Shown: positions 12,724-52,930, counted from the stretch's first letter. The stretch is DNA of 64,000 nucleotides from a virus (IMGVR_UViG_3300036792_000284:1-64000); one strand, 5' to 3'. The notes: generated by a model not told the origin, from the letters alone. Translations and numbers: made by a program.

Positions 12724-13590
12724 TCACACGTAAGCGTCGGACCAAGTGAACAGCGCGGTCCCGGCGCTGACCGAAATGTGGTTGGAGCCGCTCACGAGAC
12801 ACATCCACATCCGGCTGCCGATGTGGCTGAGGCCGCCGACCACGTTGTTCCCGACGTTGTCGACCGCGGTGTAGCGCAGCACGTCGATCGTCACCGGCCA
12901 GGACGCTACGCCGGCGCCGTTGTGGGTGACGGACACCCCGGCCGTGTTGTTGGTGACCGTGCTGGCCTGGGAGATGGTGACGGTGAAGGCGTTGACCGCC
13001 GAGGCGAACCCTTCGCCCACCACGCCCTCGCCCGGCGCGGTAATCGTACTGCCGCTGGTGTTCACCACCTGGCTGCGCTGCGCCCCGTAGAAGTACGGGT
13101 CGGACAGCAGCAGGTCGACGGAGAACGCGGCCGAGGTGCGCCCGTTCATCGTCGGGTCCATCGAGCCGGCGATCTCGGCCATCGCGGTGGAGGTGACCAT
13201 GCCGGGGCCGCCGGAGGTCAGGTACCAGTTGCGCTGGAGCTGGCCCTGGGTGCTGCCCTGGGCCCCGCGGGTGAAGAACGCGGCGCGCAGCGCCTGCCAG
13301 TTGTCGTTGAACGCGCGGCGCGGGTCGCCGGCCGGGTAGGACTGGTTGGCCGACATCTGGCTGTCGGTCCACATGGTCAGCGTGATGGTGCGCTCGTCGG
13401 GGTACTTGGCCCGCCAGAGCTGGCCCGCCCGGTAGGGCACCGCGTAGTCCTGGCCACGGTTGGTGGGCAGGCCGAAGCGCGAGCCGCCGAAGGTCGCGAC
13501 GTTGTAGTAGCTGGTCGACAGCGGCATCCCGTTCCAGAACCAAATCTCGTTCGGCGAGTACGCGCCCACCGGAGCCGACGGCAACGGCAT
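12724..13590 (-). CDS. Distal tail (Dit)-like protein
   Basis: Immediately after tape measure; RTITLTMW..FSVDLLLSDPYFYG pattern. Confidence 0.75.
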   Translation of the reverse strand: MPLPSAPVGAYSPNEIWFWNGMPLSTSYYNVATFGGSRFGLPTNRGQDYAVPYRAGQLWRAKYPDERTITLTMWTDSQMSANQSYPAGDPRRAFNDNWQALRAAFFTRGAQGSTQGQLQRNWYLTSGGPGMVTSTAMAEIAGSMDPTMNGRTSAAFSVDLLLSDPYFYGAQRSQVVNTSGSTITAPGEGVVGEGFASAVNAFTVTISQASTVTNNTAGVSVTHNGAGVASWPVTIDVLRYTAVDNVGNNVVGGLSHIGSRMWMCLVSGSNHISVSAGTALFTWSDAYV

Positions 13591-16500
13591 CAGACCATCC
13601 CCCTTCCGCCGAGGAACGCGAGCCTGTTGGACGCCCTGGTAATCGAGTCGCTCGGCTTCTCGGCGCGGGGGTTGTTGATCGTGAGGTTGTCCACCTGCAG
13701 GCCCACCCGGTTGCCGGCGGCGTCCGACAGGGTGCGCGGCAGCTGGCCTGCGGTGGCCGCCGAGAGCTGCCGCGACAGGTTGGCCGACAGGCCCGGCACG
13801 AACAGGTTGGGCACCACCCCGCCCGCGGCCATGCCGCCGCCGAACATGGCGGCCACGTTAGACAGCCCCGCGGCCGGGACCCCGCCGCCGGAGGCGAGAC
13901 CGAAGCCCATGGAAGACGTGGGGGCGACCGGCCCGCCGCCCGCGTACCAGCCGAACTGCTGCTCGTGCGCCCAGGCGCCCTCGGGCGTCCCGTAGCGCTG
14001 GGCAATGTAGTTCAACATCGCGGTCACCTGGCCGAGCGCGGTGGTCGAGTTGCCGCCGTACTGGGCGTACTCGCCGGGACCGTTAATAAACTGCGCCAGG
14101 CCGTACGCACCCGACGTCGGGTTCTGCGCGGTCATGTTGAAGCCGGCCTCGCGGTTCTCCACGTCGTACAATGCGCTCCACTGCGCCCCGGTCCAGCCGC
14201 GCGCGGCGGCCAGGTTCTTCATCATCGCCGCGATGATGCCGCCGCCGGTCCCGGCCGAGGGGATGGCCGCGTTGGCTGCGGTCGTCTGGCCGGTCATCCA
14301 GTTGGAGATGCCGGTGTGGATGTTCTGCAGCCAGGCGGCGCCCATGTCGCCCGGCGTGCCGAGCGCCTCCAGCCCCTTCTGTGCCGGCGCCCCGGCCACG
14401 TTCCACATCGCGTTGAAGACGGCCTGCTCGCCCCACTGGGTCACGTCGCTGGCCGCGCCGGTGATCCCGTGCCAGGCCGCGCCGGCCACGCTGCCTACGT
14501 CGCCCAGCCAGTTGGTGATGTCGCCGACGATGCCGCCGCTCGCGTGCCGGCCGAAGCCGGGGCCCCGCCGCTGGCTGGCTGTGTTGCCGCGCGAACCTGA
14601 GCCCAGCCAGGTGTCGGCGTTGTTCAGGGCGTCCAGGAAGTCGGGGCCGAACGCGGCCTGCAGGGCCATCCGGGCGGGCTTGCGGAGCATGAACTCCCCG
14701 CCCATCGCGATGATGTGCGTGCCGTCTTCGTCGCCCGTCCCCGGCACCGAACCGGACACCTTGTGGACCGGGCCGCCCGCCGCCAGCGTGGGGATGGTGC
14801 CGATGTGGATGCCCACCACCGACGTCACCGAGTTGATCCAGCCGATGACGGTGTTCAGCCCGCCGATGACGTGGTCAATCCCTCCCCTGAGGGAGTTCCA
14901 CATGGCGTTCGGCAAGGTGGTGGTGAAGAAGCTCTCGATCTTCCCCAGGACCTGGCTGGCGCCGGTCCACGCGGACGACCAGAAGCTGTTCCACTTGGTG
15001 CCCAGGCTGTTCCACCAGCCCGGGATGTCGTTGACGAAGAACCTCTGCATCGGCGCCAGGATGTTGCCGTTGAACGCCTGCCACCCCTGCACCCAGTGCT
15101 GCGACCACGAGCTGGCGTAGCCGGCGAACCACCCGGGGATCGTCGTGGTGAAGAACTTGCCCATCGGCGCCAGGATGTTGCCGTTAAAGGCCTGCCAGCC
15201 CTGAATCCAGTGCTGGGACCAGGAGTTGGCGTAGCCGGTAAACCAGCCTGGCACCGTGACGGTGAAGAACTTGCCCATCGGCGTCAGGATGTTGTTGTTG
15301 AACGCCTGCCAGCCTTGGACCCAGTGCTGGGACCAGGAGTTGGCGTAGCCGGTAAACCAGCCCGGCACCGTGACGGTGAAGAACTTGCCCATCGGGGCGA
15401 AGATGTTGTTGTTGAACGCCTGCCAGCCCTGCACCCAGTGCTGCTGCCAGGAGGCGGCATAGCCGGTGAACCAGCCCGGCACGATGGACGTGAAGAACTT
15501 GCCCATCGGCGCCACGATGTTGCCGTAAAAGAACTGCCAGCCCTGCACCCAGTGCTGCTGCCACGAGGTGGCGTAGCCGGCGAACCACCCGGGGAGGGTC
15601 TTGTTGAAGAAGTTCCCGCTCTGCGCCTGGTAGGCGGGCGCGGGGACGGACGCCTGGCCGATCTCGTTGCTCAACTGCTGCAGCTTCGCCTGCAGCGGGC
15701 CCGTGTCCAGGGTCGGCTTGACGGGCGCCGGCTGGTCCTTCGCCCACAGGGCCAGCGCCTGCTTCCGGTCGATGCCCATCTGGGAGAGCGTCGCGAGGAA
15801 CTCGTCTTTCGCCTGACTCAGCCCCTGCGGGCTGGTGCCGTAGACGGCGATCAGGGCGTTGGCCACCTGCTTGGAGAGGCTGACTTCCTGCGGGGTGATG
15901 CCTTTGGCGAGGTCGGCCCGGTGGGTCAGGACGTACTGGTAGAAGTTGGCTACCGCCTTGGTCATCTGCGGCATGTTGACCAGGCCGGCGGCGATGGCCT
16001 GGTTGAGGTTGGTGTTGATGGCGCTGGCCAGGTTCTGCACGTCGGTGGTCAGGTTGGCCGAGCCGGTCTCCAGAATCCCGACCTGCTTGTTCAGGTCCGC
16101 GGTGGTGCCCTTGAGGGTCTGGTTGCCGCCCGACCACTTCAGCAGCGCGTCGTAGGTGGCCTTGCCCGTGTAGCCCATGGTCTGGGCGAGGGCGTAGGCG
16201 CCCTGCACCGATTCCGTCGTGGCGCCGCCCTGGGCGAGCAGGCTGTTGACGATGTCCCGGCCGGACGCGGCGAGCGCCGCGTTGGACTTGGCGTTGTTCC
16301 CGGCCGCCGCGTTCTGCAGCAGCAGGTTGTTGTAGAGGGTCTGGCCGGCGGTGAGGTTGGCCTCCCACGACTGGCGCAGCGTCAGGCTCACCGCGTTCAG
16401 CCCGCCCATGGAGGCCCCGGCCACCTTGGAGTTGGTGCCGACGGTGTTAATGCCGGTCGCGTAGGCCTCGAACGAGTTCTGGCCGCTGTCCACTAGCGTC

Positions 16501-19500
16501 AGGAACGAGGTGAAGTCGCCGGTCAGCGCCGTGATCTGGCTGTTCTGGACCTCGCTGGCCAGCGTCACGGCGTCGACCGCCGCGCCCAGCTGGTTCATCC
16601 CGTTCTTGAGGTTGTAGCCGGCGACCCCCATGTTCAGCCAGCCGGTCACCAGGTCTTTGACCTTGGTCTCCTGGGTGGCCAGGTCGTCGGTGACCTTGAC
16701 CCCGGCCAGGTCCATCAGCGCGAACGACTGCTGGACCGACGTGCCGTACTGCTTGGTGGTGGCCGCCGCCGTCTCCAGCGTGGTCGTCCAGTCCTTCTGC
16801 TCGGCCGTCAACTGCTTCAGCACCAGCGACGTCGAGCCCGGCTGCTGGTTGGTGCCGGTGACGGCCTCCCACAGGTCCTTGAACGCCTGCAGGTGCAGCC
16901 CGAAGCCGGACGCGTCCTTCGTCAGATTCGACCAGCCCTGCGCCATGTTGCCGACGAAGTTCCGGCTGCTGGCCGCCGACTGGGCCAGCCACTTGTTCAT
17001 CGAGGAGAGGTTGGTCTGGATCTGGGCAAAGCCCTGGCTGGCGTTGTCGTTGGCCAGCGAGGAGATCAGGCCGCCGACGTAGGCCTTGGCCTGGCTGCTG
17101 GCCTGGCCAGCGGCGTAGATCGCGTAGCCGACGGCGCCGATGGCCGCGGCGATGGCGAGGATGGTGCTGGCGGGGATGGCCGCGAAAGCGGCTTTCGTCT
17201 GGACCCCGAGCGCCTCGAAGGCGCCGCCGACCAGCGGCAGCTTGGCCAGCAGGCCGATGAAGTTCAGAGTGAGTTTCTCAACCCAGCCGACCAGGTTTAT
17301 CACCTGGGTGGCCAGCAGCCCGCCGTAGTGCACTACGGAGAAGAAAGCGATGCCGGCGGCCAGCGCGTACGGCCCGACGGCGTTGAGGGCCTTCTGCACC
17401 ACCGACAGCGCGTAGGCGATGCCCTCGAATAGCAGCTCCGAGACGTGCGTCATCTGCCCGGCCTGCAGGAACAGGCCGAGGATCTTGAGGATGGAGGTCC
17501 CGATGCCGGCCAGGATGTGCATGTCGTTGGTCGCGGTGTTGATCATCGGCCCCAGCAGGTTCGAGTGGCTCGAAACTGCCTGCTGGATCTTGATGACCAT
17601 GTCCTCGACCCAGGTGCCGGCCTTCTGCGTGATGGACTGCAGCAGGCCCATGTGCCCGGTGAGGGTGTTGATGGCGGCGCCGAAGATCGTGACCACGGTG
17701 GGCGCCATGGCGCCCTGCATGGTCCGGATGGTGACCGGCAGGCGGCTCATGGTCGCGTTGAGCGAGCCCGCCTTGGCCTGCAGCGGACCGAAGTGCGCGG
17801 TGCCCAGGTTGTCGGCCCCGGTGCCGAGCGCGTCCAGCGCGGTGTGCACCCCGGTGAGGTGCGCGATGACGTCCTTGGTCGCAGGCTCGGCGGCGACGGC
17901 GAAGGCACCGAGGGCGACGCTGGCGGCGATGACGGCAGGAACCAGGACGATGAAGAAGTCGATGAGCGTGTGCAGGGCCAGCGCCCACACACTGATGGTG
18001 CCGGCAAAGGGGATCTTGCTGAACACCCCGCCGAACAGGGTCAGGTCCCTAGTGAAGAAACCCCACAAGCCGCCGGCCCCGCGGGCAGTGTTCCCCGCCG
18101 TGTTGGCGGCAGTGCCGGCGTCCTTGGAGGCAGCGGCGGTGGCTTTCGCCTTAACCCCGGCCCGCTCCATCGCGTCTGCGAGCATGTTCCAGGCGGCAGC
18201 GTCCGCCGGGTCCGGCTCCCCTGGCGAAGCGGCCCCGGGCGGAGCCGGAGGCGGCCCGCCGCCCCCGCCGCCCGCCGCCCCGCCCCGCCCGAGCAGGGCC
18301 ATCAGGGCCTTGCCCTGCTCCTGCGCGCTGAGCATCCGGCCCTCGATCTGGTTCAGGTCGTCCAGCACCTCGGCGTCGTTCATGGTCGCGTAGAACTCGT
18401 ACTTCTTGCGGGCCGCCTCAATCAGCTTGCCGACGAAAACGTCCAGCTCGTCCTCGGCCGCGGACCCGTCCCACTCGACGCTGGTCCGGACCTCCTTCGG
18501 GACCTTCTCCTCCTCCTTGATGAACTCCTCCACGCCGGAGATGGCCCCGGTGGCGTCCACGTTGATGACGATGTCGGACTCGTCCCGGTCCAGCCGTTCC
18601 ATCGCGTCGTTGAGTGCTGCCAGCTCCGCCTCGGTCAGGTCGGCGCCCCGCAGGCCGACCTGAGGCTCCGCGTGCTCCCGGCCGAACTCGGTCAGCATCG
18701 CGGACAGCGCGTCCAGGTCGTCCTGGGCCTGGGACCAGCCCTCGATCGCGAGGTGCGGCTCGACAACCTCGCCGTCCAGCACTTCCAGCTCGTCCTGCAG
18801 GGCGTCGGCCTCCAGCCGGGCCGCCTCGACCTCCGCGAAGCTGATGCCGACGTTCAGCCGGGACCGCGTGTCCAGTTCCTTCAGCTCGGCGGCCAGCAGG
18901 GTCGCCTCGGTGACCGCCTCCGGCCCGCCCACAAGCTCGATCCTGGGATGCGCGGTCACCGTGTCCAGCGCCTTCAGCTCCGCGGCCAGGGCCCGGGCCG
19001 CGGCCGAGCTGGTCACCTCCGGGGTGATGCTGACCGGGACCTTGCCGCCGGTGAACGGGATGCCGCCCAGCCGCGTCGCCGAGGACACGATGTCGGTGGT
19101 CTCCGCGCGCGGCAGCCCCATTAGCGCCGCCCGGTACGTGGCCAACTGGGCCATCGCCTGGGAGTCGTCGAGGACCGCGCGCGTCTGTACCGTGTTCGGC
19201 AGGCCGATGAGCGCCGCGTTGTAGGCGTTGACCGTGGACAGCCCCTCGCCGAGGCTGCCCGCCGACGCGTGCGTGCCCTGCAGCGCGTTGGCGTGCGCCA
19301 GCAGCAGAGCCGTCTCGGCGCCGATCGCCGCGCTGCGGTCGCGGATGGCGGCCGACAGCGCCGCGGTCTGCATGGTCTCGCGCTGCAGAAAGCCCAGGTA
19401 CTGGTCGGCCGTCAAGTACCCCGCGAAGTGCGCCTTGTTCTCCAGCAGCGACAGTGCGTACATCTGCTGGCGGTAGGACATCGCCTGCTGGACCGAGGAG

Positions 19501-19882
19501 AACCCGAGCCACTTCTGCCGGTTGAGCAGCGTGGTGTAGTTCAGCTCCTGAGACAGGTCGCTCAGGTGCTGGGTCATGTCGTTCCGGCCGCCGAACAGCA
19601 GCTGGGTGTTGGTCTGCTTGGCGGAGTTGGCCAACTGGGACAGGGCCTGGGACTCGGCCTGGATGGCCGCGATGTCCTTCTGCCGGGCGGCGGCTGCCGC
19701 CGTCGAGCCCGCCACCTCGGCCGCGGTCTCCGCCTTGACCGCGTCCGCCATGCCCTGCAGTGCCGCCTTGGCCTGGGCGGCGTCACGCATCAGGTCACCG
19801 AAGTCGCCTGGATGTTAAACCGATCGCCTTGTAAATTACGTACCAGGCGATCTAACCAGTACTCCGGTCCCTCATAAGCCAC
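13590..19882 (-). CDS. Tape measure protein with C-terminal lytic transglycosylase-like domain; N-terminus predicted via two translational hops (ORF-track start 19790)
   Basis: 2066-aa Ala-rich ORF after tail chaperones; NREAGFNMTAQNPTSGAYGLAQF muralytic motif; upstream MAYEGPEYW/YVIYKAIG/DFGDLMRD segments separated by TTA-led 10-nt gaps. Confidence 0.9.
15020..15610 (-). repeat. 114-bp (38-aa) tandem repeat x5 in tape measure
   Basis: PGWFxGYAxSWxQHWVQGWQAFNxNIxxPMGKFFT units; aagaac anchors at 15037, 15151, 15265, 15379, 15493. Confidence 0.9.
19806..19858 (-). other. Two tandem translational bypass elements (TGG|TTAGATCGCC|TGG and GGT|TTAACATCCA|GGC)
   Basis: Matched take-off/landing codons, identical 10-nt gap length, each gap starting with the rare TTA codon; removing the gaps restores an open frame into the TMP. 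Confidence 0.75.
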
Positions 19883-20051
19883 AACTGTGGCTCAGAGGCT
19901 CAGAGTAAGGCGTCATGAGCACCACCCCCTCTCCCAGAAGGGGCCGCAGCCCGATGTAGTCAGCGAACCTGACGGCTAGGACCGGCTTCCGCACCTGCGC
20001 GGCCTCGCGCAGGCAGGCCGCGTCGCGCGCATCGTCTCGCACGATGCTCAC
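19872..20051 (-). CDS. 59-aa ORF (or 14-codon uORF from ATG 19916) ending ...GGC-TTA-TGA over the TMP start
   Basis: GTGA overlap with chaperone stop; strong SD before ATG 19916; TTA is the last sense codon. Confidence 0.4.
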   Translation of the reverse strand: MSIVRDDARDAACLREAAQVRKPVLAVRFADYIGLRPLLGEGVVLMTPYSEPLSHSCGL

Positions 20052-21084
20052 CCCCCGCCTCCGCTCAGCGCGATGTCCTCCGGCACCGGCGGCGGCGCCG
20101 CGGCACCGAACATCGCCGCGAAACCCTCGTACGAGCCGGCTGCGTTGCTCGCCTCCACCCCGGCCGCCGGGTCAGCAGCGACCCTGGCGAACCGCGCGTC
20201 GTCCTCAAGCCGGTCGGCGACCTTCGGCCCGCGGATGCGGTCCAGCTCCCGCTCTTCCGGCGACCTGGTGGCGAAGATGTCGAGGGACGCCGCCAGCTCC
20301 ACCAGCGGGTTACGCCCGCCGTGCTTCTCGGTGTCCACCATCGCCTGCGCTCCGATGAAGCTGCATATCGTCTTGACCTGCCACTCGGCCACCTTCAGGC
20401 GCGACCTGTGCTCCCGGTCGCGCCGCGCGGTGGCAGCCTCCAGGACCTGCCTCAGACGGCAGACGTAGAGGTCGAGGATGTAATCGTCGGTCCATCCGTA
20501 CTCGTGGCTGAGGACGTCGAACGCCGCCGCGAACGAGCCGGCGAGTTGAGTTCCTGCACCGACGCCTCCGGCTCCGCCGGCGCCTTGTCCTGACCCGTCT
20601 TGCGGAACATCTCGATCGTCCGCTGGAGCTTTTTTCCCAGGGCCTGCAGCTCCGGGGCCTCGTTGCGGACGATGACCTCGATCAGGTCGAAGGCGTCTTC
20701 CAGCTCCGGGTTATGCAGCTCCTCGCCGAACTGGGACCACAGCGCCTGGTTGGCCTCGCTCTCCTGCTTGGTCAACTGGGAGGCGGCCTTGTCGACGATG
20801 CCGGCCGGGCGGCACATCGACGCCAGGAAGGCGATGGCTTCCCCTTCGGCGTCGGGGATCGACATGGCGATAAGCATCAGCAGCTTCTGGCCGAACTCCG
20901 CGGGGTCGTCCTGGAAGTTGAGCTGCGTCTGGGTCAGCGCCGGGCCGGCCCCGTGGGTGAGCACGCGCAGCAGGCGGAAGAACTGGCGGGTGCGCATCCG
21001 CAGCACTTCGACCGTGAAGCCGGTCGACAGCTTGCACTCGGCTGGCTGCGGGTCGATGCGGTCCAGCTCGGAATCGTCCGGCAC
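20048..21084 (-). CDS. Tail assembly chaperone, long form (-1 frameshift product)
   Basis: -1 frame is open from slippery GGGAAAA (20638-20632) through AFDVLSHEYGWTDDYILDL to stop 20048. Confidence 0.8.
20452..21084 (-). CDS. Tail assembly chaperone, short form
   Basis: Between tail tube and TMP; GTG start with RBS gggagg. Confidence 0.8.
   Translation of the reverse strand: MPDDSELDRIDPQPAECKLSTGFTVEVLRMRTRQFFRLLRVLTHGAGPALTQTQLNFQDDPAEFGQKLLMLIAMSIPDAEGEAIAFLASMCRPAGIVDKAASQLTKQESEANQALWSQFGEELHNPELEDAFDLIEVIVRNEAPELQALGKKLQRTIEMFRKTGQDKAPAEPEASVQELNSPARSRRRSTSSATSTDGPTITSSTSTSAV
20630..20638 (-). other. Programmed -1 frameshift slippery site G GGA AAA
   Basis: Classic actinophage tail-chaperone heptamer. 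Confidence 0.8.
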
Positions 21085-27744: not shown

Positions 27745-28291
27745 TGCTCAGCCCTCCCAGGTAGGAGAGGACTTCAGATGCGAACTGCTCGAACCAGCCG
27801 AGCGAGCCGTTGCACTTCGTGCAGAGGAGCCCTCGTACGCACTTACCGCACGAGGAATCGCCTGGGCAGCACCGCCGGTCGTGGTCCACGGCGAAGCGGG
27901 CCGTCCGCGAGTTAGCCGCCTCCTCGGGAGTCCGACGGCAGATTTTGCACCGGCCGTCCTGCTCAGCCAGCATCTGCCAGTAATCAGCGGGAGTGATGTG
28001 GAACTTTCGGCGTAGCCCGTTCTCCCAGTGCAACTGATTGTCCTGCGCCAGCCGGTCAGCATCCCAGGAATCGCGCAGGTCCTTGGCGTAGCCACGTCGG
28101 CAGACCTTGCAGGGAGACATGAGCGAGCCGCTGGACTTGCGGTAAAACTCGTCGCGCGAGCGCTCTTCCTGGCACTGGTAACACACCAGCGTGGCCGGGG
28201 TGCAATCAGGCCGGCAGTACCTCTGTGCCGGACCCTGGGGGGTGAAGCTGGTACCGCATCCCCCGCAGTCACGGTCTGGCCATCGGCCCAC
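27695..28291 (-). CDS. Endonuclease VII-like HNH homing endonuclease
   Basis: QDGRCKIC..AVDHD..CC..SCGKCVRGLLCTKCN..LG. Confidence 0.85.
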   Translation of the reverse strand: MGRWPDRDCGGCGTSFTPQGPAQRYCRPDCTPATLVCYQCQEERSRDEFYRKSSGSLMSPCKVCRRGYAKDLRDSWDADRLAQDNQLHWENGLRRKFHITPADYWQMLAEQDGRCKICRRTPEEAANSRTARFAVDHDRRCCPGDSSCGKCVRGLLCTKCNGSLGWFEQFASEVLSYLGGLSNAVVGSPSPGPDQVPI

Positions 28292-28454
28292 GTAACACCT
28301 CCATCAGCACTGTTGCTGATGTAAGGATAACGGATAGACAGTTTTCCGTTTAGCGGCTGGTCAGACTGCACCAGCACCACCCCCTGCAGGCTCCCGTGGA
28401 CTCAGGCAGTTCTCACACTGGGCAGGGCAGCGCTGATGACGCGCCCGCAGGTAA

Positions 28455-43940: not shown

Positions 43941-45491
43941 GACCCGCCCAGCCCGTTACCCTTGGTGGTCTGCCCGACGACGCTGCCGCCCGACGCCGAG
44001 GTGCCGGTGCCGGTCGGGTGAGCGGTGGTGGGGATCTTGACGGTGATGGCGGGCGGCTGGGCGCCGCCGGAGCCCCGGCCCGCGCCCTGCACCTGGGCCG
44101 GGTTCGCCGCGGCGGCCTGCGCCTGCTTCTGGGCGGCCTGCTGCATGACCTGCGCCTGCTTCTCCCGGTCGGCCTCGACCTGGTCGTAGTCGATGTCGAA
44201 CCCGAAGTTCTGAGCCATCCGCGATTCCAGGTGCAGCATGAACTCGGGGGTGACGTTCGCCTGCGGGCCGGCGGTCGCCAGCTTGTCGAACGTGTCCTGG
44301 ATGGCGGCCTTGGCCTCCTCGGTCAGCGGGCCCCACTTGAACTGCGGGTACTTGCCGGAGCCGAAATTCCAGTCGACGAACCGCGGGAAGATGTGGTCGT
44401 TGATGACCTGCGCCATCTCCTCCAGGATGCCCTCAAGCATCAGGAAGAACGTGACGTCGTCCTGCTTGCCGAAGTCGACCAGGGTGCTGTCCCCCTGGCC
44501 GCCGCCCTGCTCGTTGTCGAACCACTGCGCAAGCACCGACTTGGACATCTGGCTGTTGTGGTGGTTGATCAGGCCGAGGAAGTCAAAGCGCGACGCGGAC
44601 TCATTCAACGTCTGCACCGTCCAGTCGGCGGTGGGCAGCGCGATGTACTGGGCGAGCCCGAGCTGGCTCAGCGCCCTGACGAAGTTGTTCTTGTCCTGCG
44701 TGGGGGCGTTCGGCACCATCGTGCCCACCCGCAGGCCGACCGCGGCCCTTTGCGCAGCCAGGTGGGCGATGTAGTAGAGCTTCTCCTTCTTGTCGTAGTG
44801 GTAGAACGCCGACTCGAACATGGACACGCCGTAGAACGGCCTTTCGGCCTCCTCGTGCGCGTAGTACAGCGCGGTTTCCTTCTCGATCTTGACGTCGATG
44901 GTGCGGCCCTGGAAGAAGGTCCTCTGCCGGAAGCCGTTGAACTCGCCCTGGCCGTCGAGCAGGAACGTGAGGGTCTCGCTCGGGCGCCAGTCGATCTTGC
45001 GCAACGTGTACTTGCCCTTGTTCGGCCCGGTCTTCGGCTGCCAGTAGACCATCTCCCAGGCGCTGAACCCGTTGAACAAGGCCAGCAGCATCTGCTTGAC
45101 GAACTTGTCGAAGCTGTGGGTCATGCCGCCCTGCGACCGCGGGGCGAACAGCAGGTCCTTGCAGAACTGCGCTTCCTTGGTGCCGCCGGCCTGGCCGTCG
45201 ATGGGCACCACGTCGGCGTTCTTCATCGCGGACAGCAGCGGCTTGGTCAGCAGCCGGTACAGCGCCCGGGCCTGGCCGTCGCGCCGTCGCATGGTGACCA
45301 GCTGGCGGATGCTGACCGGGTCGTCACGGAAGACTTCCCACGAGTCGCGGTACGGGGTCGCGAACGGCAGGAAGTACGGGACACCCGTGGCAAAGCTGAG
45401 TGCTTCCGGGGGCGGCTGCGGCAGCGCCTGCTCATCCTGGAGGACGTAGCCCTCCTGGCCGTAACCCTGCGTGGTCTAAGGTGACGCCCAT
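43937..45491 (-). CDS. Portal protein (Mu gp29/DUF935-like); N-terminus predicted via a +4-nt hop at ACC-TTAG-ACC
   Basis: ALFNGFSAWEMV..RPFYGVSMFESAF..HNSQMSKSVLAQ motifs; ~60 coding-like codons upstream of ATG 45292 bounded by an in-frame TAG. Confidence 0.85.
45473..45482 (-). other. Translational bypass element ACC|TTAG|ACC
   Basis: Matched Thr codons flanking a TTA-led 4-nt gap at codon 4-5 of portal. Confidence 0.65.
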
Positions 45492-45586
45492 TCCTCCGGG
45501 CGGCTGCACGCTAGCGGTGTACGAACCTTGTCCCGAACCTGGGGTCGTCATTCGGCATCACCTCCTCGCAGACAGGAGGCGGTGCC

Positions 45587-46351
45587 TCAGAGCTGCATGA
45601 CATCTCCCGTCTGATCGGAGGCAAGTTGCGCGGCTACCGCGGCAGGCAGTTCTTCCCAGGCGTGCTCTGGACGCTTAAAGTGACACGACTCGCACAACGT
45701 CACCAGCCAGCGCAGATCGTTCACCGGCCGGAACCGGAACGGGATGATGTGGTGGACGTGCAGCTTCTGCGCCGAGAAGTCAGTTAGCCCGCAGTCCTGG
45801 CAGGTATAGCCGTCGCGTTCAAGCGCCTGGCCCCGGACCTCCAGCCAGTCGCTGCCTCGGTAGGTGGGTGCGTAGTTGCCTGCGCACCAGCGCCAGTGCT
45901 GCGCTCCGCGCTGAGCCCCGCGCACAATTCCCCGCAGCGAGGCCTCGCTGTAGACGGAACCGAGCTTCTTTCCCGTGCGCCGGGCCACTTCCACCAGCGG
46001 CAGAGACGTATCCCGCAAGAGGGCAAGCTCTTCCTCAGACCAGCCAGGACGGCGCACCACACCATGCCGGGACGCCATGGCCTTGACTGCATCCGGCGTC
46101 CTGCTCGTAGTCCGAGCCACCTCGGCAATGGACAGCGATACATCGCGCAGCAGCTCCAACTCGGCATCGGTCCACGGATTGTCGTCTCCGCGCTTCAGCC
46201 CTACTCCGACCCGAAACGAGCGATCGATGCCCAACCGGATAGCCTTGTGCTCCACCGCCACCAACGAACGCCCGGTCCGCTCGGCGACCTCGGCCAGCGT
46301 CAGTGACGTGTCCCGCAGCAGGGCCAGCTCGTCTTCAGCCCAGCGCGACAC
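45587..46351 (-). CDS. HNH endonuclease with three N-terminal Myb/HTH-like repeats
   Basis: W.E.EL.LLRD.SL...EVAR.TG x3; LERDGYTCQDCG..LHVHHI..N...LVTLCESCH. Confidence 0.85.
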   Translation of the reverse strand: MSRWAEDELALLRDTSLTLAEVAERTGRSLVAVEHKAIRLGIDRSFRVGVGLKRGDDNPWTDAELELLRDVSLSIAEVARTTSRTPDAVKAMASRHGVVRRPGWSEEELALLRDTSLPLVEVARRTGKKLGSVYSEASLRGIVRGAQRGAQHWRWCAGNYAPTYRGSDWLEVRGQALERDGYTCQDCGLTDFSAQKLHVHHIIPFRFRPVNDLRWLVTLCESCHFKRPEHAWEELPAAVAAQLASDQTGDVMQL

Positions 46352-46568
46352 GGACCAGTTCCAGCTTGCGCTCCGCCTCGCGAGCCCGCCGCTCCCAGTC
46401 CTCGCCGCCAACGGCCAGGTCCTGCTGCGCGGCAGTACTAATCAGGCCACGGAGGAAGTCCAGCGGCGGCGTTTCCCCGCGCATCCTCTCAATGGCCGCG
46501 AGCATGTCATCGCTGACCTTGAGGCCGATGAGGTTACGGTAACTACCAGGCTCCAGGTTTCTTGTCAC
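46335..46568 (-). CDS. Small DNA-binding/antitoxin-like protein (RHH-like)
   Basis: LIGLKVSDDMLAAIERMRG..DFLRGLI; leaderless from consensus promoter. Confidence 0.5.
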   Translation of the reverse strand: MTRNLEPGSYRNLIGLKVSDDMLAAIERMRGETPPLDFLRGLISTAAQQDLAVGGEDWERRAREAERKLELVRVALG

Positions 46569-48033: not shown

Positions 48034-48233
48034 TCCTCCTGTTACGAGCCCCTGTGCTTGTCACGAGGCAACTGACAACTATTACGTACCAGGAAGATCA
48101 GCAGGGCGGTTTTCCCCTAAAACGTGGCCGGAACGCAAAAGCCCCGCCAGTCCCGGAGGGACGGCGGGGGGTAGTAGGTCCAGCTTAGTACGAAGTTGTG
48201 CAGATATGCTGCCACAGCGTGAGCATCTTCGAG

Positions 48234-48306
48234 TGGCCTCGGCTGGACTCGAACCAGCGACCCACGCCTTAGGAGGACGCGGCTCTATCCACTGAGCTAC
48301 GGGGCC
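48234..48306 (-). tRNA. tRNA-Arg(CCT)
   Basis: Cloverleaf; loop CT-CCT-AA. Confidence 0.9.
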
Positions 48307-48307
48307 C

Positions 48308-48383
48308 TGGAGGCGGAAACCGGAATCGAACCGGTGTGCGTCGCTTTGCAGGCGACTGCATATCCAGACTCTGCCATACCGCC
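48308..48383 (-). tRNA. tRNA-Cys(GCA)
   Basis: Cloverleaf; encoded CCA. Confidence 0.9.
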
Positions 48384-48384
48384 G

Positions 48385-48461
48385 TGGTGCGCTCGGAGGG
48401 ACTCGAACCCCCGACCCCTGGTTCCGGAAACCAGTGCTCTATTCCACTGAGCTACGGGCGC
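48385..48461 (-). tRNA. tRNA-Arg(CCG)
   Basis: Cloverleaf; encoded CCA. Confidence 0.9.
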
Positions 48462-48462
48462 T

Positions 48463-48546
48463 TGGTGACGGACGCAGGAATCGAACCTGCCGTGCCGAAG
48501 CAGCCGGGTTACAGCCGGCCCCCATGCCATCTCGGGTCACTCCGCC
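48463..48546 (-). tRNA. tRNA-Tyr(GTA)
   Basis: Cloverleaf with long variable arm. Confidence 0.9.
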
Positions 48547-48547
48547 T

Positions 48548-48622
48548 TGGGGTTGGTAACGAGAATCGAACTCGTATATCTGGAGCCACAGTCCAGCGCT
48601 CTGCCGTTGAGCTATACCGACC
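48548..48622 (-). tRNA. tRNA-His(GTG)
   Basis: Cloverleaf; G-1:C73. Confidence 0.9.
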
Positions 48623-48623
48623 G

Positions 48624-48695
48624 TGGGCGATGCTGGGATCGAACCAGCGACAACTGGTGTGTGAGACCAGCGCTCTTCCGCTGAGCTAAACGCCC
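48624..48695 (-). tRNA. tRNA-Val(CAC)
   Basis: Cloverleaf. Confidence 0.9.
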
Positions 48696-48706
48696 TCGTA
48701 CTTGCG

Positions 48707-48779
48707 TGCCCCCCGGGAGACTCGAACTCCCACCCTCCTGATCCGTAGTCAGACGCGCTATCCGTTGCGCTAGAGGGGC
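48707..48779 (-). tRNA. tRNA-Arg(ACG)
   Basis: Cloverleaf. Confidence 0.9.
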
Positions 48780-48783
48780 AAAG

Positions 48784-48855
48784 TGGGCGTACCTGGGGTT
48801 GAACCAGGGTCCTCTTCCGTGTCGGGGAAGCGCGCTTCCGCTGCGCTACACGCCC
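48784..48855 (-). tRNA. tRNA-Val(GAC)
   Basis: Cloverleaf; C33. Confidence 0.85.
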
Positions 48856-48896
48856 ATCGCTAGACAGTGGTCAAGAAACAGGTACCGTTTAATCAC

Positions 48897-49031
48897 GTGG
48901 ACACTTTCATCCTGCTGGCCATCGTCTTCGCTGCCGGCGTCTGGGTCGGCATGCGGTTCGGCGGCAGGCGCGCGCTGTGGCGGCTGCACACCGGGAACTA
49001 CAAGAAGATGGTCCGTGACCTCGACCTGTGA
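48897..49031 (+). CDS. 44-aa membrane peptide antisense to tRNA array
   Basis: MDTFILLAIVFAAGVWVGMRFGGRRALWRLHTGNYKKMVRDLDL; high GC3 codon usage. Confidence 0.6.
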   Translation: MDTFILLAIVFAAGVWVGMRFGGRRALWRLHTGNYKKMVRDLDL

Positions 49032-49032
49032 G

Positions 49033-49108
49033 CGCTCCTGACGGGATTCGGACCCGCGGTCTCCACCGTGACAGGGTGGCGGGGACGGCCAGACTCCCCT
49101 ACAGGTGC
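49033..49108 (-). tRNA. tRNA-Asp(GTC), atypical
   Basis: Cloverleaf; T-loop GTCCGAA, A3:A70 mismatch. Confidence 0.75.
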
Positions 49109-49120
49109 ATGTGTACTGCG

Positions 49121-49195
49121 CTCTCGCGGCAGGATTCGAACCTGCAACCCCCCGATTAACAGTCGGGCGCTAACTGCCAGTTGAGCTACGCGAGA
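49121..49195 (-). tRNA. tRNA-Asn(GTT)
   Basis: Cloverleaf. Confidence 0.9.
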
Positions 49196-49214
49196 TCGCT
49201 TGAGAGGCCTCCGG

Positions 49215-49979
49215 TTATTTAGCCCTTATCCAGCAGGGCCAGCCACGTATTCCCCGGAGCTTACGCCGGCCGCCAGTGCCGGACCTCGGTAAACAGTAAA
49301 GGCTCCCGGCGCCAGGAGCCCTCGCTGCTCTGTTGCCAGCCTGTCGAGGTGACTGGTCAGACCGTGGCGGGGGCAGGATTCGAACCTGCGTCTTCCGGGT
49401 TATGAGCCCGGGCTGGGACCTAGCTCCAGTCACCCCGCACCGTGTGGCACCAGGATAGCCCCCCAGGTGCCCGTGCTGCCGACGGGAATCGAACCCGTGT
49501 CGCTTATCCGGTTTGAAGGACCGGCGGCCCCTATCCAGCAGAGCAACGACAGCATGTAACTTAACGTGAGCCCAGTCAATCCCGCACCTGACACGGCTGA
49601 CCGTAGCCCGGGAAACTCCAAAACGTGCAGCAGCTGCCCGGGTGGGCTCACTTGATGCCCTGATCTCACGCACCAACTGTGGAGTCAGCTTGGCCTGAAC
49701 CTGCTGCTCTCCGTGCAACTTCTCCCCGGCAGACTTCTCATCATGATGCGGCCGACAGAGCACTTGGCACTTAGCTAGCTCAAGCTCACGCCGCATGCGC
49801 GACCACGACCAGACGTTATGACTAACCTTCAAGGCAGGGTCAATATGGTCCAGTTGAAGGTCATCGGCGCTGCCGCACCGGACACACGTCTTGTCGGCGA
49901 ACCAGGATGCACGAGTAGCTGCGGCCCGCTCTCTCTGGTATCTGCGCTGCTGTTCCGGGTCCTTATAGGGCACAAACAA
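49215..49979 (-). CDS. HNH homing endonuclease (HNH + HTH, ~140 aa core) whose frame reads on through two tRNA genes
   Basis: CVRCGS.DDLQLDHIDP..ELAKCQVLCRPHH; NUMOD/HTH-like RFGVSRATVSRV. Confidence 0.8.
   Translation of the reverse strand: MFVPYKDPEQQRRYQRERAAATRASWFADKTCVRCGSADDLQLDHIDPALKVSHNVWSWSRMRRELELAKCQVLCRPHHDEKSAGEKLHGEQQVQAKLTPQLVREIRASSEPTRAAAARFGVSRATVSRVRCGIDWAHVKLHAVVALLDRGRRSFKPDKRHGFDSRRQHGHLGGYPGATRCGVTGARSQPGLITRKTQVRILPPPRSDQSPRQAGNRAARAPGAGSLYCLPRSGTGGRRKLRGIRGWPCWIRAK
49365..49439 (-). tRNA. Initiator-type tRNA-Met(CAT)
   Basis: GGG/CCC anticodon stem, 1:72 mismatch. Confidence 0.8.
49474..49553 (-). tRNA. Atypical tRNA, best fold Glu(TTC) (loop CCTTCAA, 9-nt variable region)
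   Basis: Acceptor GCTGTCG/CGGCAGC, canonical T arm. Confidence 0.6.
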
Positions 49980-49982
49980 GTG

Positions 49983-50054
49983 TAACCCCTACCGCGTATA
50001 ACCCGTGCTCTCGCCTTGAAAGGACGGCGACCTCGGCCGCTAGTCGATGGGGGC
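49983..50054 (-). pseudogene. Degenerate tRNA-Glu(TTC) with destroyed T arm
   Basis: GCCCCCATCGACTAGCGGCCGAGGTCGCCGTCCTTTCAAGGCG intact; T loop replaced by GGGTTATACGCGG. Confidence 0.65.
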
Positions 50055-50186
50055 TCAGGAGACGAGCCGAATACCTTGTCTAAGGGCTCGGCCCGCTCCA
50101 CCGTGCCTGATATGTGTGCCAAGGCCGACTTCCCTCCGGTAGACAGTCCGGAGGTACTCACACACTGGGACAGGCTTGCCCGGCCG

Positions 50187-50261
50187 TGGTCCTGGCGGGC
50201 TTCGAACCCGCGTCACCGACTTGAGGGGCCGGCGTCCTGAGCCTGACTAGACGACAGGACC
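50187..50261 (-). tRNA. tRNA-Glu(CTC)
   Basis: Cloverleaf. Confidence 0.85.
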
Positions 50262-50272
50262 ATGTTCTTGCG

Positions 50273-50346
50273 CGCGCCGTGCAGGACTCGAACCCGCGAC
50301 CGTTCGCTTAGAGGGCGACCGCTCTGTCCGACTGAGCTAACGGCGC
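50273..50346 (-). tRNA. tRNA-Arg(TCT)
   Basis: Cloverleaf. Confidence 0.85.
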
Positions 50347-50350
50347 TGGG

Positions 50351-50422
50351 TGAGCTGCCAGGGACTTGAACCCTGTTCCCTGGATTAAAAGTCCGGTGCA
50401 TAGCCGTACATGCTCGCAGCCC
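50351..50422 (-). tRNA. tRNA-Lys(TTT)
   Basis: Cloverleaf; near-identical to Lys(CTT) copy. Confidence 0.85.
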
Positions 50423-50423
50423 G

Positions 50424-50500
50424 TGGTAGCGGTAGCGGGACTTGAACCTGCGACCTCGCGAATTATGAGTTCGGCGCTCTGCCAGCTGAGCTATACCGCC
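50424..50500 (-). tRNA. tRNA-Met/Ile2(CAT), elongator type
   Basis: Cloverleaf; encoded CCA. Confidence 0.85.
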
Positions 50501-50501
50501 G

Positions 50502-50575
50502 TGGGCGAGGCAGGATTTGAACCTGCGTCCTTCTCCTTATCAGAGAGCTGCTCGAACCGACTGAGCTGCTCGCCC
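50502..50575 (-). tRNA. tRNA-Ile(GAT)
   Basis: Cloverleaf. Confidence 0.85.
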
Positions 50576-50576
50576 G

Positions 50577-50663
50577 TGGAGGAGACGGTGGGATTCGAAC
50601 CCACGGGGCCGTAGCCCGCCGGTTTTCGGGACCGGAGCCTTAATCCACTCGTGCCACGTCTCC
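50577..50663 (-). tRNA. tRNA-Ser(CGA)
   Basis: Long variable arm; CCA. Confidence 0.9.
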
Positions 50664-50664
50664 A

Positions 50665-50750
50665 TGGAGGAACGGGCGGGATTCGAACCCGCGGGGCCGT
50701 GGCCCTCCACGCTAGCAACGTGGTGCGATCGTCCGCTCTGCCACCGTTCC
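50665..50750 (-). tRNA. tRNA-Ser(GCT)
   Basis: Long variable arm; CCA. Confidence 0.9.
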
Positions 50751-50754
50751 AAAG

Positions 50755-50839
50755 TGTCCGAGGAGAGATTTGAACTCTCACGCCCCGTGTGGAGCACTAG
50801 GGCCTGAACCTAGCGTGTCTGCCGTTCCACCACCCGGAC
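50755..50839 (-). tRNA. tRNA-Leu(CAG)
   Basis: Long variable arm. Confidence 0.9.
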
Positions 50840-50840
50840 T

Positions 50841-50916
50841 TGGAGCCGACGACGGGACTCGAACCCGCGGCCTCAACCTTGGCAAGGTTGCACGCTTCCA
50901 GCTGCGCTACGTCGAC
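50841..50916 (-). tRNA. tRNA-Gly(GCC)
   Basis: Cloverleaf; CCA. Confidence 0.9.
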
Positions 50917-50928
50917 ATGCTTACTGCG

Positions 50929-51001
50929 AGCCCGGAAACGGATTTGAACCGATGGCCTCTTCCGTACCGAGGAAGCGCTCTGCCTACTGAGCTATCCGGG
51001 C
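50929..51001 (-). tRNA. tRNA-Thr(GGT)
   Basis: Cloverleaf. Confidence 0.85.
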
Positions 51002-51032
51002 ATACTGGTCTCCGACAAGCGGAGGTAGCTAC

Positions 51033-51149
51033 ATGAACAAGGGCGCCAGCATCGCTAACGGGCCGATGCCGCACCAAGTGCCACAAGAAGTCCTCGACGC
51101 GAAAGCCGTCTCCACGACCTCCTGGGACCTAATCGAGCCGGGCATTTAG
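51033..51149 (+). CDS. 38-aa peptide antisense to tRNA array
   Basis: RBS ggaggtag; MNKGASIANGPMPHQVPQEVLDAKAVSTTSWDLIEPGI. Confidence 0.45.
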   Translation: MNKGASIANGPMPHQVPQEVLDAKAVSTTSWDLIEPGI

Positions 51150-51245
51150 AGAGGGCGTTCTTTAGGCCAGGGTTGTTGGCATCTTGAACTAACGGAAGCC
51201 CTGGCCCCCGCCCGGCCCCGCCGTAGGTACCGGATCTCCCTCAGG

Positions 51246-51331
51246 TGTCCGAAGCGGGACTCGAACCCGCACGCCCCTTGCGGGACACCCGCACCTCAAG
51301 CGGGTCAGTCTACCAATTGCAGCATTCGGAC
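51246..51331 (-). tRNA. tRNA-Leu(GAG)
   Basis: Long variable arm. Confidence 0.9.
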
Positions 51332-51341
51332 TTGATTTACA

Positions 51342-51462
51342 GGAGAACCCGAAGACCGGACCCCGGCGTGCACACCGAGGCGGCTGCCCTCACTCCGACT
51401 AGTTGCGGCCTGCGCACGACCGACTGGCACGGCGAGTCTTCTGGGGATGTTGCACGTTCTCC
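51342..51462 (-). ncRNA. Putative structured spacer RNA
   Basis: Closing stem GGAGAAC/GTTCTCC plus inner GAAGAC/GTCTTC. Confidence 0.35.
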
Positions 51463-51464
51463 CG

Positions 51465-51537
51465 AGCCCCGAACCGGCATCGAACCGATGACCTCCCCAT
51501 TACGAGTGGGGCGCTCTGCCATCTGAGCTACCGGGGC
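51465..51537 (-). tRNA. tRNA-Thr(CGT)
   Basis: Cloverleaf. Confidence 0.9.
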
Positions 51538-51548
51538 ATTGTTACCAG

Positions 51549-51619
51549 CTGGAGTACCTGGACTCGAACCAAGACCGACGGGTTCAGGGCCCGTCACGCT
51601 GCCATTACGCCATACTCCA
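51549..51619 (-). tRNA. tRNA-Gln(CTG)
   Basis: Cloverleaf. Confidence 0.85.
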
Positions 51620-51716
51620 CCGTCGCCGGGGCCCTTTGCTCGCCCCGGAGTGACGACCTTGTTCCTCCCCAGGGAGGGGCCGGGCAAGGATTCGCAGGAC
51701 GGCCTTGCCAGCCGTG

Positions 51717-51791
51717 TGGGCGAGGCGGGATTCGAACCCGCACGTTCCGCTGTTTGAGAGCGGCGAGTCTGCCGAGTTGCCCCACTCGCCC
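51717..51791 (-). tRNA. tRNA-Leu(CAA) with short (class I) variable arm
   Basis: Loop CT-CAA-AC; 5-nt variable region. Confidence 0.75.
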
Positions 51792-51826
51792 TGAGGACCC
51801 GGCGAGCATCGCTCCCCGGGCCCAAG

Positions 51827-51898
51827 TGCGCCGCCAGGGACTTGAACCCCGTTCCCTGGATTAAGAGTCCGGTGCATAGCCGTACATGCTCGCGGCGC
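51827..51898 (-). tRNA. tRNA-Lys(CTT)
   Basis: Cloverleaf. Confidence 0.85.
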
Positions 51899-51992
51899 GT
51901 AACCCGGACCTATTCTGGCCTCACAGCACTTATGCGAGGCGCTGTAGTCTATTTGGCCAGGTGGTTTCCGGGGGCGGTATGCATCCCGCCAG

Positions 51993-52065
51993 AGGGGATG
52001 ACGGGAATCGAACCCGCATCTGCTGATTGGAAGTCAGTCATCCTGAGCCATTGGACGACATCCCC
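51993..52065 (-). tRNA. tRNA-Gly(TCC)
   Basis: Cloverleaf. Confidence 0.85.
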
Positions 52066-52079
52066 GTTGTGTTACTGCG

Positions 52080-52152
52080 TAGGACCTGGAGATTCCGAGA
52101 CTCCGACCTGCAGGGTTTCAATCTGCCGCTCTGCCATCTGAGCTAAGGCCCC
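52080..52152 (-). tRNA. tRNA-Phe(GAA), atypical T loop
   Basis: D and anticodon arms canonical; T arm GGAG-TCTCGGAAT-CTCC. Confidence 0.65.
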
Positions 52153-52155
52153 ATA

Positions 52156-52270
52156 GTGACAGCTCACTCAGGAAACCACGGGAACCCGGTACCCGAGCCT
52201 CTCCTGGGATGGACGTCTCCACTTCCGCTGACTACCGCTTAAAGGCGGCTCCTGCGTCGGAGCTGTCAAG
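52156..52270 (-). ncRNA. Novel ~115-nt structured RNA, copy A
   Basis: TGACAGCTC/GAGCTGTCA closing stem; shares CGA.GCAGGAGCC and GGGTACCGGGTTCCC with copy B. Confidence 0.65.
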
Positions 52271-52342
52271 TCGGGACACAGGGACTCGGACCCCGTCTGC
52301 CTGCTCCCAAAGCAGGCGCGCTAACCCTTACGCGATATCCCG
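52271..52342 (-). tRNA. tRNA-Pro(TGG)
   Basis: Cloverleaf; T loop variant GTCCGAG. Confidence 0.8.
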
Positions 52343-52347
52343 TAGAC

Positions 52348-52479
52348 GGGCGGAGTGCTGCCGTTACACCACAGCCCTCAGCTCCTCGGGGCGGCCTACC
52401 CCGGCGTCCCTGGTGGCCACCAGGTCGGCGCGGAACCTTCGCGAGAGCTGCCGGGGACTTGAACCCCGGACTGCCGCCC
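52348..52479 (-). ncRNA. Circularly permuted tRNA-like RNA 1 (YrlA-like architecture)
   Basis: Order T arm - acceptor stem with ~65-nt insert - D arm, closed by GGGCGG/CCGCCC. Confidence 0.75.
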
Positions 52480-52558
52480 TGGTCGGGGTGGTGAGATTTG
52501 AACTCACGACCTCTTCGTCCCGAACGAAGCGCGCTCGACCAAGCTGCGCTACACCCCG
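52480..52558 (-). tRNA. tRNA-Pro(CGG)
   Basis: Cloverleaf; CCA. Confidence 0.9.
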
Positions 52559-52561
52559 AAG

Positions 52562-52677
52562 GTGACGGTGCACCCAGTCCGCCCGGGGAACCCGGTACCC
52601 CGGCGCAGGCTCAGGCCATGCGTCCATGCTTCGGCCGACCACCTCTTTGCGGAGGCTCCTGCTTCGGCACCGTCAAG
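52562..52677 (-). ncRNA. Novel ~115-nt structured RNA, copy B
   Basis: TGACGGTGC/GCACCGTCA closing stem covarying with copy A. Confidence 0.65.
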
Positions 52678-52688
52678 TCGAACTAAGT

Positions 52689-52802
52689 TCACGGCATGAC
52701 CGTCCAGCTGTTGGTCTGCTCGTGCAACTGGATCTCACTGTGGCGAACCCAAGACGGCTCGCCGGGCCCGCCGGTGCAAGCGACGTTTCCCTTGTCTCCC
52801 AT
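52689..52802 (-). CDS. 37-aa peptide inside tRNA array
   Basis: RBS gggaggt; MGDKGNVACTGGPGEPSWVRHSEIQLHEQTNSWTVMP. Confidence 0.45.
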   Translation of the reverse strand: MGDKGNVACTGGPGEPSWVRHSEIQLHEQTNSWTVMP

Positions 52803-52853
52803 GAGGATTACCTCCCCTCAGCAGTCGGCATGTTTTCCACACCAGCTACTACG

Positions 52854-52926
52854 TGGAGCCTGCGGGATTCGAACCCGCGACCTTTTCCGTGCGAGGGAAC
52901 TGCGCTACCAGTTGCGCCAAGGCCCC
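52854..52926 (-). tRNA. tRNA-Ala(CGC)
   Basis: Cloverleaf; G3:U70. Confidence 0.9.
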
Positions 52927-52930
52927 AGAT

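Follow-up and report, generated by a model that had tools for sequence, protein, structure and literature searches.

Programmed translational bypassing in bacterial viruses is represented, in the literature covered, by T4 gene 60 with its homologues and by the unproven case of the phiHau3 terminase. For the latter, two 10-nucleotide (nt) inserts led by UUA have been proposed to lie in the large terminase gene (Smith et al., 2013, as cited in PMC10732093). According to a review and partial test of this proposal, the terminases of two prophages, StrepC.1 and that of S. catenulae, have 7-nt inserts, three out of 100 terminase genes are affected, and a junction peptide was obtained in Escherichia coli with UAA replacing UUA (Antonov et al., 2023, RNA Biol, PMC10732093). 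A 2025 paper considers UUA in the Bxb1 primase, as speculation only. In T4, the gap in gene 60 blocks self-cleavage by the MobA element (Manning and Atkins, bioRxiv 10.1101/2022.08.31.505936, citing Bonocora et al., 2011). Here we analyse UUA-led inserts at the 5' ends of two virion genes, for the tape-measure protein and the portal protein, in IMGVR_UViG_3300036792_000284:1-64000 (‘the window’), which comprises the first 64 kb of the 124,279-bp IMG/VR record of an uncultured soil phage.

From the comparison of related sequences we consider it probable that these inserts are passed by short bypassing at a starved UUA codon, that the tape-measure protein is made from GTG 19882 and that the inserts are marks left by homing endonucleases. 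The term ‘tape measure’ does not occur in PMC10732093, and a full-text search of the literature (translational bypassing, UUA, phage, portal) returned no description of such inserts in portal or tape-measure genes. The tandem arrangement, for which the first-pass annotation of the window knew no described example, has a precedent in the two 10-nt inserts of the phiHau3 terminase (PMC10732093).

Anatomy and conservation of the tape-measure leader

The 5' end of the tape-measure gene is composed of the following elements.

19856-19882, minus strand: leader exon 1, GTG start plus eight codons, with the take-off TGG at 19858-19856; equals codons 1-9 of the gap-free relatives
19843-19855, minus strand: insert 1, a 10-nt gap from an in-frame TTA (19855-19846) plus the landing TGG (19845-19843); missing in eight gap-free relatives
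19819-19842, minus strand: leader exon 2, eight codons, with the take-off GGT at 19821-19819
19806-19818, minus strand: insert 2, a 10-nt gap from an in-frame TTA (19818-19809) plus the landing GGC (19808-19806)
13590-19805, minus strand: leader exon 3 (five codons) and the tape-measure body, from the Met codon at 19790 to the stop at 13590 (open reading frame call, N-terminus alignment)
19822-19852, minus strand: stem-loop; its 5' arm is gap 1 with the first base of the landing codon, its 3' arm the Lys-Ala-Ile codons of exon 2

The first-pass annotation had described two TTA-led 10-nt gaps between matched take-off and landing codons, and both the letters and the coordinates are exact to the base. 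The pairs are TGG/TGG and GGT/GGC; GGT and GGC are decoded by one tRNA-Gly(GCC), which is itself encoded by the phage. Its further claims, that decoding UUA as Leu leads to an early stop and that the body is free of in-frame TTA, also agree with our data. From the first TTA, the Leu reading runs for 20 further codons into the TGA at 19792-19790, and from the second for six further codons into a TGA, while the open reading frame (ORF) from ATG 19790, 2066 codons long, contains no in-frame TTA. The G + C content (GC) drops to about 50% over 19800-19880.

Scans of IMG/VR and of Joint Genome Institute (JGI) metagenomes with the tape-measure N-terminus gave 25 loci (12 from IMG/VR and 13 from metagenomes; loci are numbered with the prefix L), about 20 of them distinct. 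Gap-free relatives had been predicted, and eight distinct loci of this kind were found, in which 22 leader codons correspond to the three exons of the window joined in frame. These eight have a start codon with a strong Shine-Dalgarno sequence and a distance of 66 nt from start to Met, as opposed to 70, 76, 92 or 93 nt in the insert-bearing loci. In the other 12 distinct loci, inserts occupy six positions within the 22 leader codons and, where measured, lengthen the locus by 4, 10, 26 or 27 nt; after excision of the inserts all 12 leaders encode the conserved sequence. Besides the two of the window, nine TTA-led insert sequences fall within these 22 codons. The counterparts of insert 1 are 14 nt long in L002 and L004 and 16 nt long in L028, and retain the TGG landing codon.

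Over leader codons 2-22 of the insert-bearing loci, the non-synonymous difference (pN) is 0.07 and the synonymous difference (pS) 0.71, giving a pN/pS of 0.098. Within the lineage sharing the two inserts of the window the ratio is 0.095, and in the gap-free loci it is 0.18. These values point to strong purifying selection on the leader in the 12 insert-bearing loci. The first-pass annotation had named findings that would speak against its reading: homologues without the leader segment, a protein starting at ATG 19790, and insertions produced by assembly. The homologues do contain the segment. L028 has both inserts and a Lys codon in place of the Met codon, so that this locus has no internal start. 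Both inserts, with diverged flanks, recur in the independent assemblies L002, L004/L005/L018 and L028, and since these come from separate metagenomes the inserts are not assembly artefacts. On such comparative grounds, and not from the window alone, the pattern exceeds chance.

The 8-bp inverted repeat noted in the first-pass annotation is real, 19852-19845 pairing with 19829-19822. A 121-nt region around the leader has a folding energy of -50.7 kcal/mol (z = -3.7). The stem is retained in four lineages through two compensated changes, one from G-C to A-U and one from C-G through U.G to U-A, in each of which a synonymous codon change is matched by a change in the gap.

The portal gene and a catalogue of inserts

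The portal gene of the same genome is built on the same design.

45473-45551, minus strand: portal 5' end, with ATG 45551, take-off ACC 45482-45480, a TTA-led 4-nt gap at 45479-45476 and landing ACC 45475-45473

The TTA is codon 25 and directly follows ACC. The second ACC restores the frame of this 513-codon ORF, which continues after the landing to 43937, and about 60 conserved codons offer no alternative start. Of 64 related loci, the majority have an uninterrupted portal 5' part, including 25 distinct gap-free relatives; seven other portal lineages carry one to three TTA-led inserts each, and relatives have up to three in the first 70 portal codons. In a scan of the whole 124-kb record, no hop candidates came up beyond the portal site and the tape-measure pair. 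The other hits of the scan were rejected, being out-of-frame TTAs within continuous ORFs.

By program, 28 distinct inserts were derived from the loci, the tape-measure leader accounting for 12 and the portal 5' part for 16; they represent 28 alleles at about 15 sites. All 28 are opened by an in-frame TTA directly after the last codon shared with uninterrupted homologues. The P-site shifts are 4, 7, 10, 13, 14, 15, 16 and 30 nt. In 21 of the 28, the landing triplet is cognate to the preceding codon (identical or read by the same tRNA); when the test triplet was slid by -6 to +6 nt as a control, cognate matches fell to 0 to 1 of 28. Decoding of UUA would end translation after a median of a few codons across the catalogue, with a few relatives continuing much further.

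The inserts also bear on simpler forms of recoding. Bases 2 to 4 are TAG or TAA in 22 of the 28, so that simple +1 slippage on the take-off codon would run into stops there. Three kinds of insert lie beyond +1 repair: those of 14 nt in L002 and L004, one of 15 nt with an in-frame TAG in L150, and one of 30 nt with an in-frame TGA in L136. The last (L136:2255-2284, portal 5' part) is in-frame and consists of TTA, then a 4-bp hairpin with a GNRA-type loop, then TGA; take-off and landing codon are both TTC, and it is alone among the inserts in having a hairpin right after UUA. Hopping would explain all 28 inserts.

UUA is a very rare codon in this genome, occurring seven times in 26,297 codons as opposed to 1,595 times for CUG (rough set of 104 ORFs). 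The few in-frame TTAs outside the gaps are mostly found at the overlap with the start of the next gene. At whole-record positions 1584, 90189 and 91454 (minus strand), the ATG of the next gene overlaps the TTA codon, 5-16 codons before the upstream stop.

48233-53421, minus strand: 33 tRNA genes, including Trp(CCA), Gly(GCC), Thr(GGU) and Leu(CAG, GAG, CAA) (ARAGORN)

This array covers 19 amino acids, with none for Tyr according to ARAGORN. Its Leu tRNAs serve CUG, CUC/CUU and UUG; no tRNA-Leu(UAA) was detected by ARAGORN in the window or the whole genome, nor was one found in the arrays of relatives, which hold up to 37 tRNAs. The phage-encoded tRNAs for Trp, Gly(GCC) and Thr(GGU) are those that would serve as hopping peptidyl-tRNAs at the three sites.

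Homing-endonuclease genes beside the inserts and the gene neighbourhood

Directly upstream of both insert-bearing genes of the window lies an ORF related to homing endonucleases. In the relatives, endonuclease genes were identified by tblastn and Pfam.

19872-20051, minus strand: 59-codon ORF, an Endonuclease VII-type remnant without the catalytic part; its stop and the tape-measure start overlap by 11 nt
45587-46441, minus strand: homing-endonuclease gene of HNH type, containing helix-turn-helix repeats and placed immediately upstream of the portal gene (PF01844, 30.9 bits against a cut-off of 21.4)

The 59-codon ORF itself gave no PHROG or Pfam match. Over its last 34 residues it shares 79% identity with the C-terminal tail of a 253-residue ORF in L002 (PF02945) and 82% with that in L009. 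The ORF ending 11 nt inside the tape-measure start is of Endonuclease VII type in L002, L004, L009, L021 and L028, and L008 has an HNH protein at the same place. The ‘uORF’ that the first-pass annotation placed at ATG 19916, preceded by a strong Shine-Dalgarno sequence, does exist and has a purine-rich stretch before it; it proved to be the last 14 codons of the Endonuclease VII-type stump and not a separate element. A third hop from the GGC-TTA-TGA at its end, also suggested there, found no independent support, since these letters are dictated by the spelling of the first tape-measure codons.

The PF01844 match at the portal gene is the sole HNH match in the genome. In five of the seven other lineages with portal inserts, homologues of this gene or other HNH genes occupy the same place; none of the 25 gap-free relatives has one there. 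The 2 × 2 tables of endonuclease gene against insert read 6, 1, 2 and 25 for the portal gene (Fisher p = 1.4e-4) and 8, 0, 4 and 9 for the tape-measure gene (p = 0.005), both p-values being optimistic because the loci share ancestry. The inserts are concentrated at distances of up to about 250 nt from endonuclease genes. The GC content at third codon positions (GC3) of the leader is 0.61 beside an endonuclease gene versus 0.82 in gap-free loci, which is suggestive of a target that was recoded synonymously or imported with the element.

Upstream of the tape-measure start, the insert-bearing loci L023 (positions 60-480) and L025 lack an HNH or Endonuclease VII gene and have in its place an ORF whose DGYHR motif recalls ParB-like nucleases.

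The record has a GC content of 69% and a CheckV completeness of 82%. Its minus strand carries a virion module of siphovirus type with terminase, the 33-tRNA array, portal, protease, capsid, chaperone and tape-measure genes. Two features upstream of the tape-measure gene belong to the chaperone.

20452-21084, minus strand: tail assembly chaperone G (PHROG tail assembly chaperone matches, 6e-14)
20635-20629, minus strand: -1 slippery heptamer A_AAA_AAG, joining the chaperone frames G and G-T

Right after the heptamer, high GC3 passes over to the -1 frame, and the frame so shifted, G-T, terminates at the TGA at 20050-20048. For the capsid and portal proteins the nearest isolate is Microbacterium phage Magritte, at only about 50% identity, and its portal 5' part is uninterrupted. 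Distant-mode DNA and protein searches of 50,697 GenBank phage records with the tape-measure locus gave no match, the tape-measure protein had no match in PHROG or Pfam, and no prophage relative turned up among prokaryote genomes scanned at one per species.

Interpretation and comparison with known systems

We propose that the ribosome translates nine codons of the tape-measure leader and then pauses, with UUA occupying the A site and peptidyl-tRNA-Trp bound to the TGG of the P site. With a UUA decoder presumably scarce in the host and none supplied by the phage, the peptidyl-tRNA would release, the mRNA would slide by 13 nt and re-pairing would occur with the next TGG. Eight codons on, the same event would lead from GGT to GGC. 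The product would be a tape-measure protein with the conserved 22-residue leader; ribosomes decoding UUA as Leu would terminate within 7 to 21 codons. The inserts were most likely left by homing endonucleases in the first codons of the gene directly downstream of the endonuclease gene, and they would probably abolish the endonuclease target with the protein unchanged, by analogy to the 50-nt gap of T4 gene 60 and MobA. In the window, the endonuclease beside the tape-measure gene would then have decayed to the 59-codon stump, the one beside the portal gene being intact.

Several observations weigh against this proposal. The phage is uncultured and known from its sequence alone. Two hops in series would multiply any inefficiency, and the stem-loop places the landing codon in a helix, at the top of the 5' arm. 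In seven of the 28 inserts the landing codon matches at two of three bases only. Pure hopping does not predict that 25 of the 28 shifts equal 1 modulo 3, an excess that may reflect a +1 component or a biased origin of the inserts, nor that the fourth insert base is never T. Apart from the shared ancestry of the loci, the association with endonucleases has exceptions in both directions: L135 has an endonuclease gene and no insert, and L003, L006, L023/L025, L111 and L151 have inserts and no endonuclease gene. An intact Endonuclease VII-type gene of the phage itself (about 27750-28360, minus strand; PF02945, 63.5 bits) stands immediately upstream of a glycosyltransferase-like gene without a TTA-led insert. 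As to initiation, GTG 19882 has no Shine-Dalgarno sequence of its own and would rely on coupling to the stump ORF ending 8 nt downstream, a GGTGA motif lies 4 nt 5' of ATG 19790, and the frame read through from the first UUA stops exactly on this ATG.

The GGTGA motif is what one would expect if the leader were dead, that is, a dispensable N-terminal extension which has been inactivated, with the tape-measure protein starting at ATG 19790 and no recoding at all. This ATG is also the first start of the long ORF, its Met codon is conserved in nearly all relatives, and the GC of about 50% over the leader would fit as well. However, synonymous sites are almost saturated, so decay would be expected in a dead leader, and the pN/pS of the insert-bearing loci is that of a constrained sequence; the motif is not conserved in L002 or L004, L028 has no Met at the internal start, random inactivation would not give each insert an in-frame TTA together with a cognate end codon, and the portal gene has the same design in front of about 60 conserved codons that lack an alternative start. 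We regard a dead leader as very unlikely, and a leaderless protein from ATG 19790 keeps a small probability. Coupling of termination to re-initiation at ATG 19790 after reading of UUA was also considered and rejected: it fits the window, where stop and ATG overlap, but fails in L002, L003, L006 and L023. Somewhat less improbable, though still unlikely, is a +1 frameshift at UUA plus one base, a quadruplet-like reading in which UUA is decoded as Leu, one base is skipped and 1-5 residues are added. The 25 shifts of 4, 7, 10, 13 or 16 nt fit this, the corresponding reading is stop-free in those 25 inserts, and 22 of the 28 have a purine as fourth base. Such a frameshift cannot mend the inserts of 14, 15 and 30 nt, although the leader of the 14-nt lineage is still under selection. 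It leaves the cognate landing triplet (21 of 28 versus 0 to 1 when slid) without a reason, and the residues that it would add at one site vary between relatives. In phiHau3, a +1-frame stop codon left recoding undiminished, and the junction peptide lacked insert residues (PMC10732093). That the inserts are assembly or sequencing artefacts has next to no probability, since assemblies made independently from other samples contain both inserts between diverged flanks.

A different question is why the inserts are there. The first-pass annotation took them for a bldA-linked developmental AND-gate, and they might indeed serve mainly in regulation, the virion proteins being made only while the UUA decoder is scarce and the endonuclease genes being incidental. 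The persistence of inserts after loss of the endonuclease (the stump of the window; L003, L006, L023), their presence in two virion genes of one genome and the constant absence of a UUA decoder from the phage speak for this, and a model of this kind has been published for phiHau3 (PMC10732093). But many close relatives are gap-free in both genes, so the control is not needed, and the inserts cluster near endonuclease genes instead of being spread randomly over the late genes. We think a mainly regulatory function doubtful, although of the alternatives considered here it is the one with most in its favour, and the homing-endonuclease link is the better-supported reason for the inserts. A regulatory role is compatible with short hops at UUA and an origin of the inserts from homing endonucleases and does not exclude them. 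A speculative variant, to which we would give little probability, treats UUA as a clock: the phage brings 33 tRNAs and no UUA decoder, and if infection should deplete the tRNAs of the host, UUA would cease to be decodable only late, when the portal and tape-measure proteins, both gated by UUA gaps, would be completed. On this reading, gaps born from endonucleases would have acquired the role of a timing switch under the control of the phage and not of host development.

Short bypassing from GTG 19882 is thus the reading that we compare with known systems; it is well supported by comparison of related loci and unproven. Gene callers truncate or split genes of this kind: for the tape measure they place the start at ATG 19790, and from the portal ORF they drop at least the first 60 codons. 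The 28 alleles, which vary in gap length, landing codon and structure, amount to a natural mutagenesis table for hopping at a starved codon.

The closest counterpart of the trigger is phiHau3. Both systems have a short frame-breaking insert with a 5' UUA right after the last conserved codon, contiguous flanks in relatives, an early stop if UUA is read, more than one insert per gene and local RNA structure. They differ in the genes affected (the tape-measure leader and the portal 5' part here, the terminase there), in the number of cases (28 alleles at about 15 sites here, four sites in three genes there) and in the phage, which here has 124 kb, is rich in tRNA genes and shows shifts of 4 to 30 nt. 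The inserts described here adjoin homing-endonuclease genes, of which the accessible portion of PMC10732093 makes no mention for phiHau3. That source also cites two more distant parallels. The byps of Magnusiomyces capitatus mitochondria (Lang et al., 2014, cited in PMC10732093) are likewise many short untranslated inserts per gene skipped between matching codons; they belong to a eukaryotic organelle and are longer, and the likeness is drawn from the citation only. Bypassing at ‘hungry’ or unassigned codons in E. coli (Gallant, Lindsley, Weiss, Atkins, cited in PMC10732093) shares the starved A-site codon and the slide to a cognate codon a short way downstream, but there it is spontaneous and inefficient in laboratory constructs, whereas the inserts here are fixed and conserved in essential virion genes.

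The genomic setting resembles that of T4 gene 60 and MobA. Take-off and landing codons match, and the gap falls within the opening codons of the ORF that immediately follows the endonuclease gene. As with MobA, an HNH endonuclease, this ORF begins inside the endonuclease ORF in another frame, the gap outlasts the decay of the endonuclease, and neither is present in close relatives. In contrast to T4, the A-site codon is a rare sense codon instead of UAG, the gaps measure 1 to 27 nt instead of 50 (20 in one clade), genes are not split in two and can hold several gaps each, and the endonucleases belong to the Endonuclease VII family and two HNH types; a nascent-peptide signal is not known for the inserts here. 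The 30-nt insert of L136 is the allele closest in form to the gene 60 gap. The inserts would work like the T4 system but are not homologous to the T4 cassette. What is new is that they travel with homing-endonuclease genes, as the gene 60 gap does with mobA, which suggests a general route by which homing endonucleases erase their target in a conserved gene and leave its protein unaltered. The data join two known systems, a trigger of the phiHau3 kind and a genomic setting of the T4 MobA kind.

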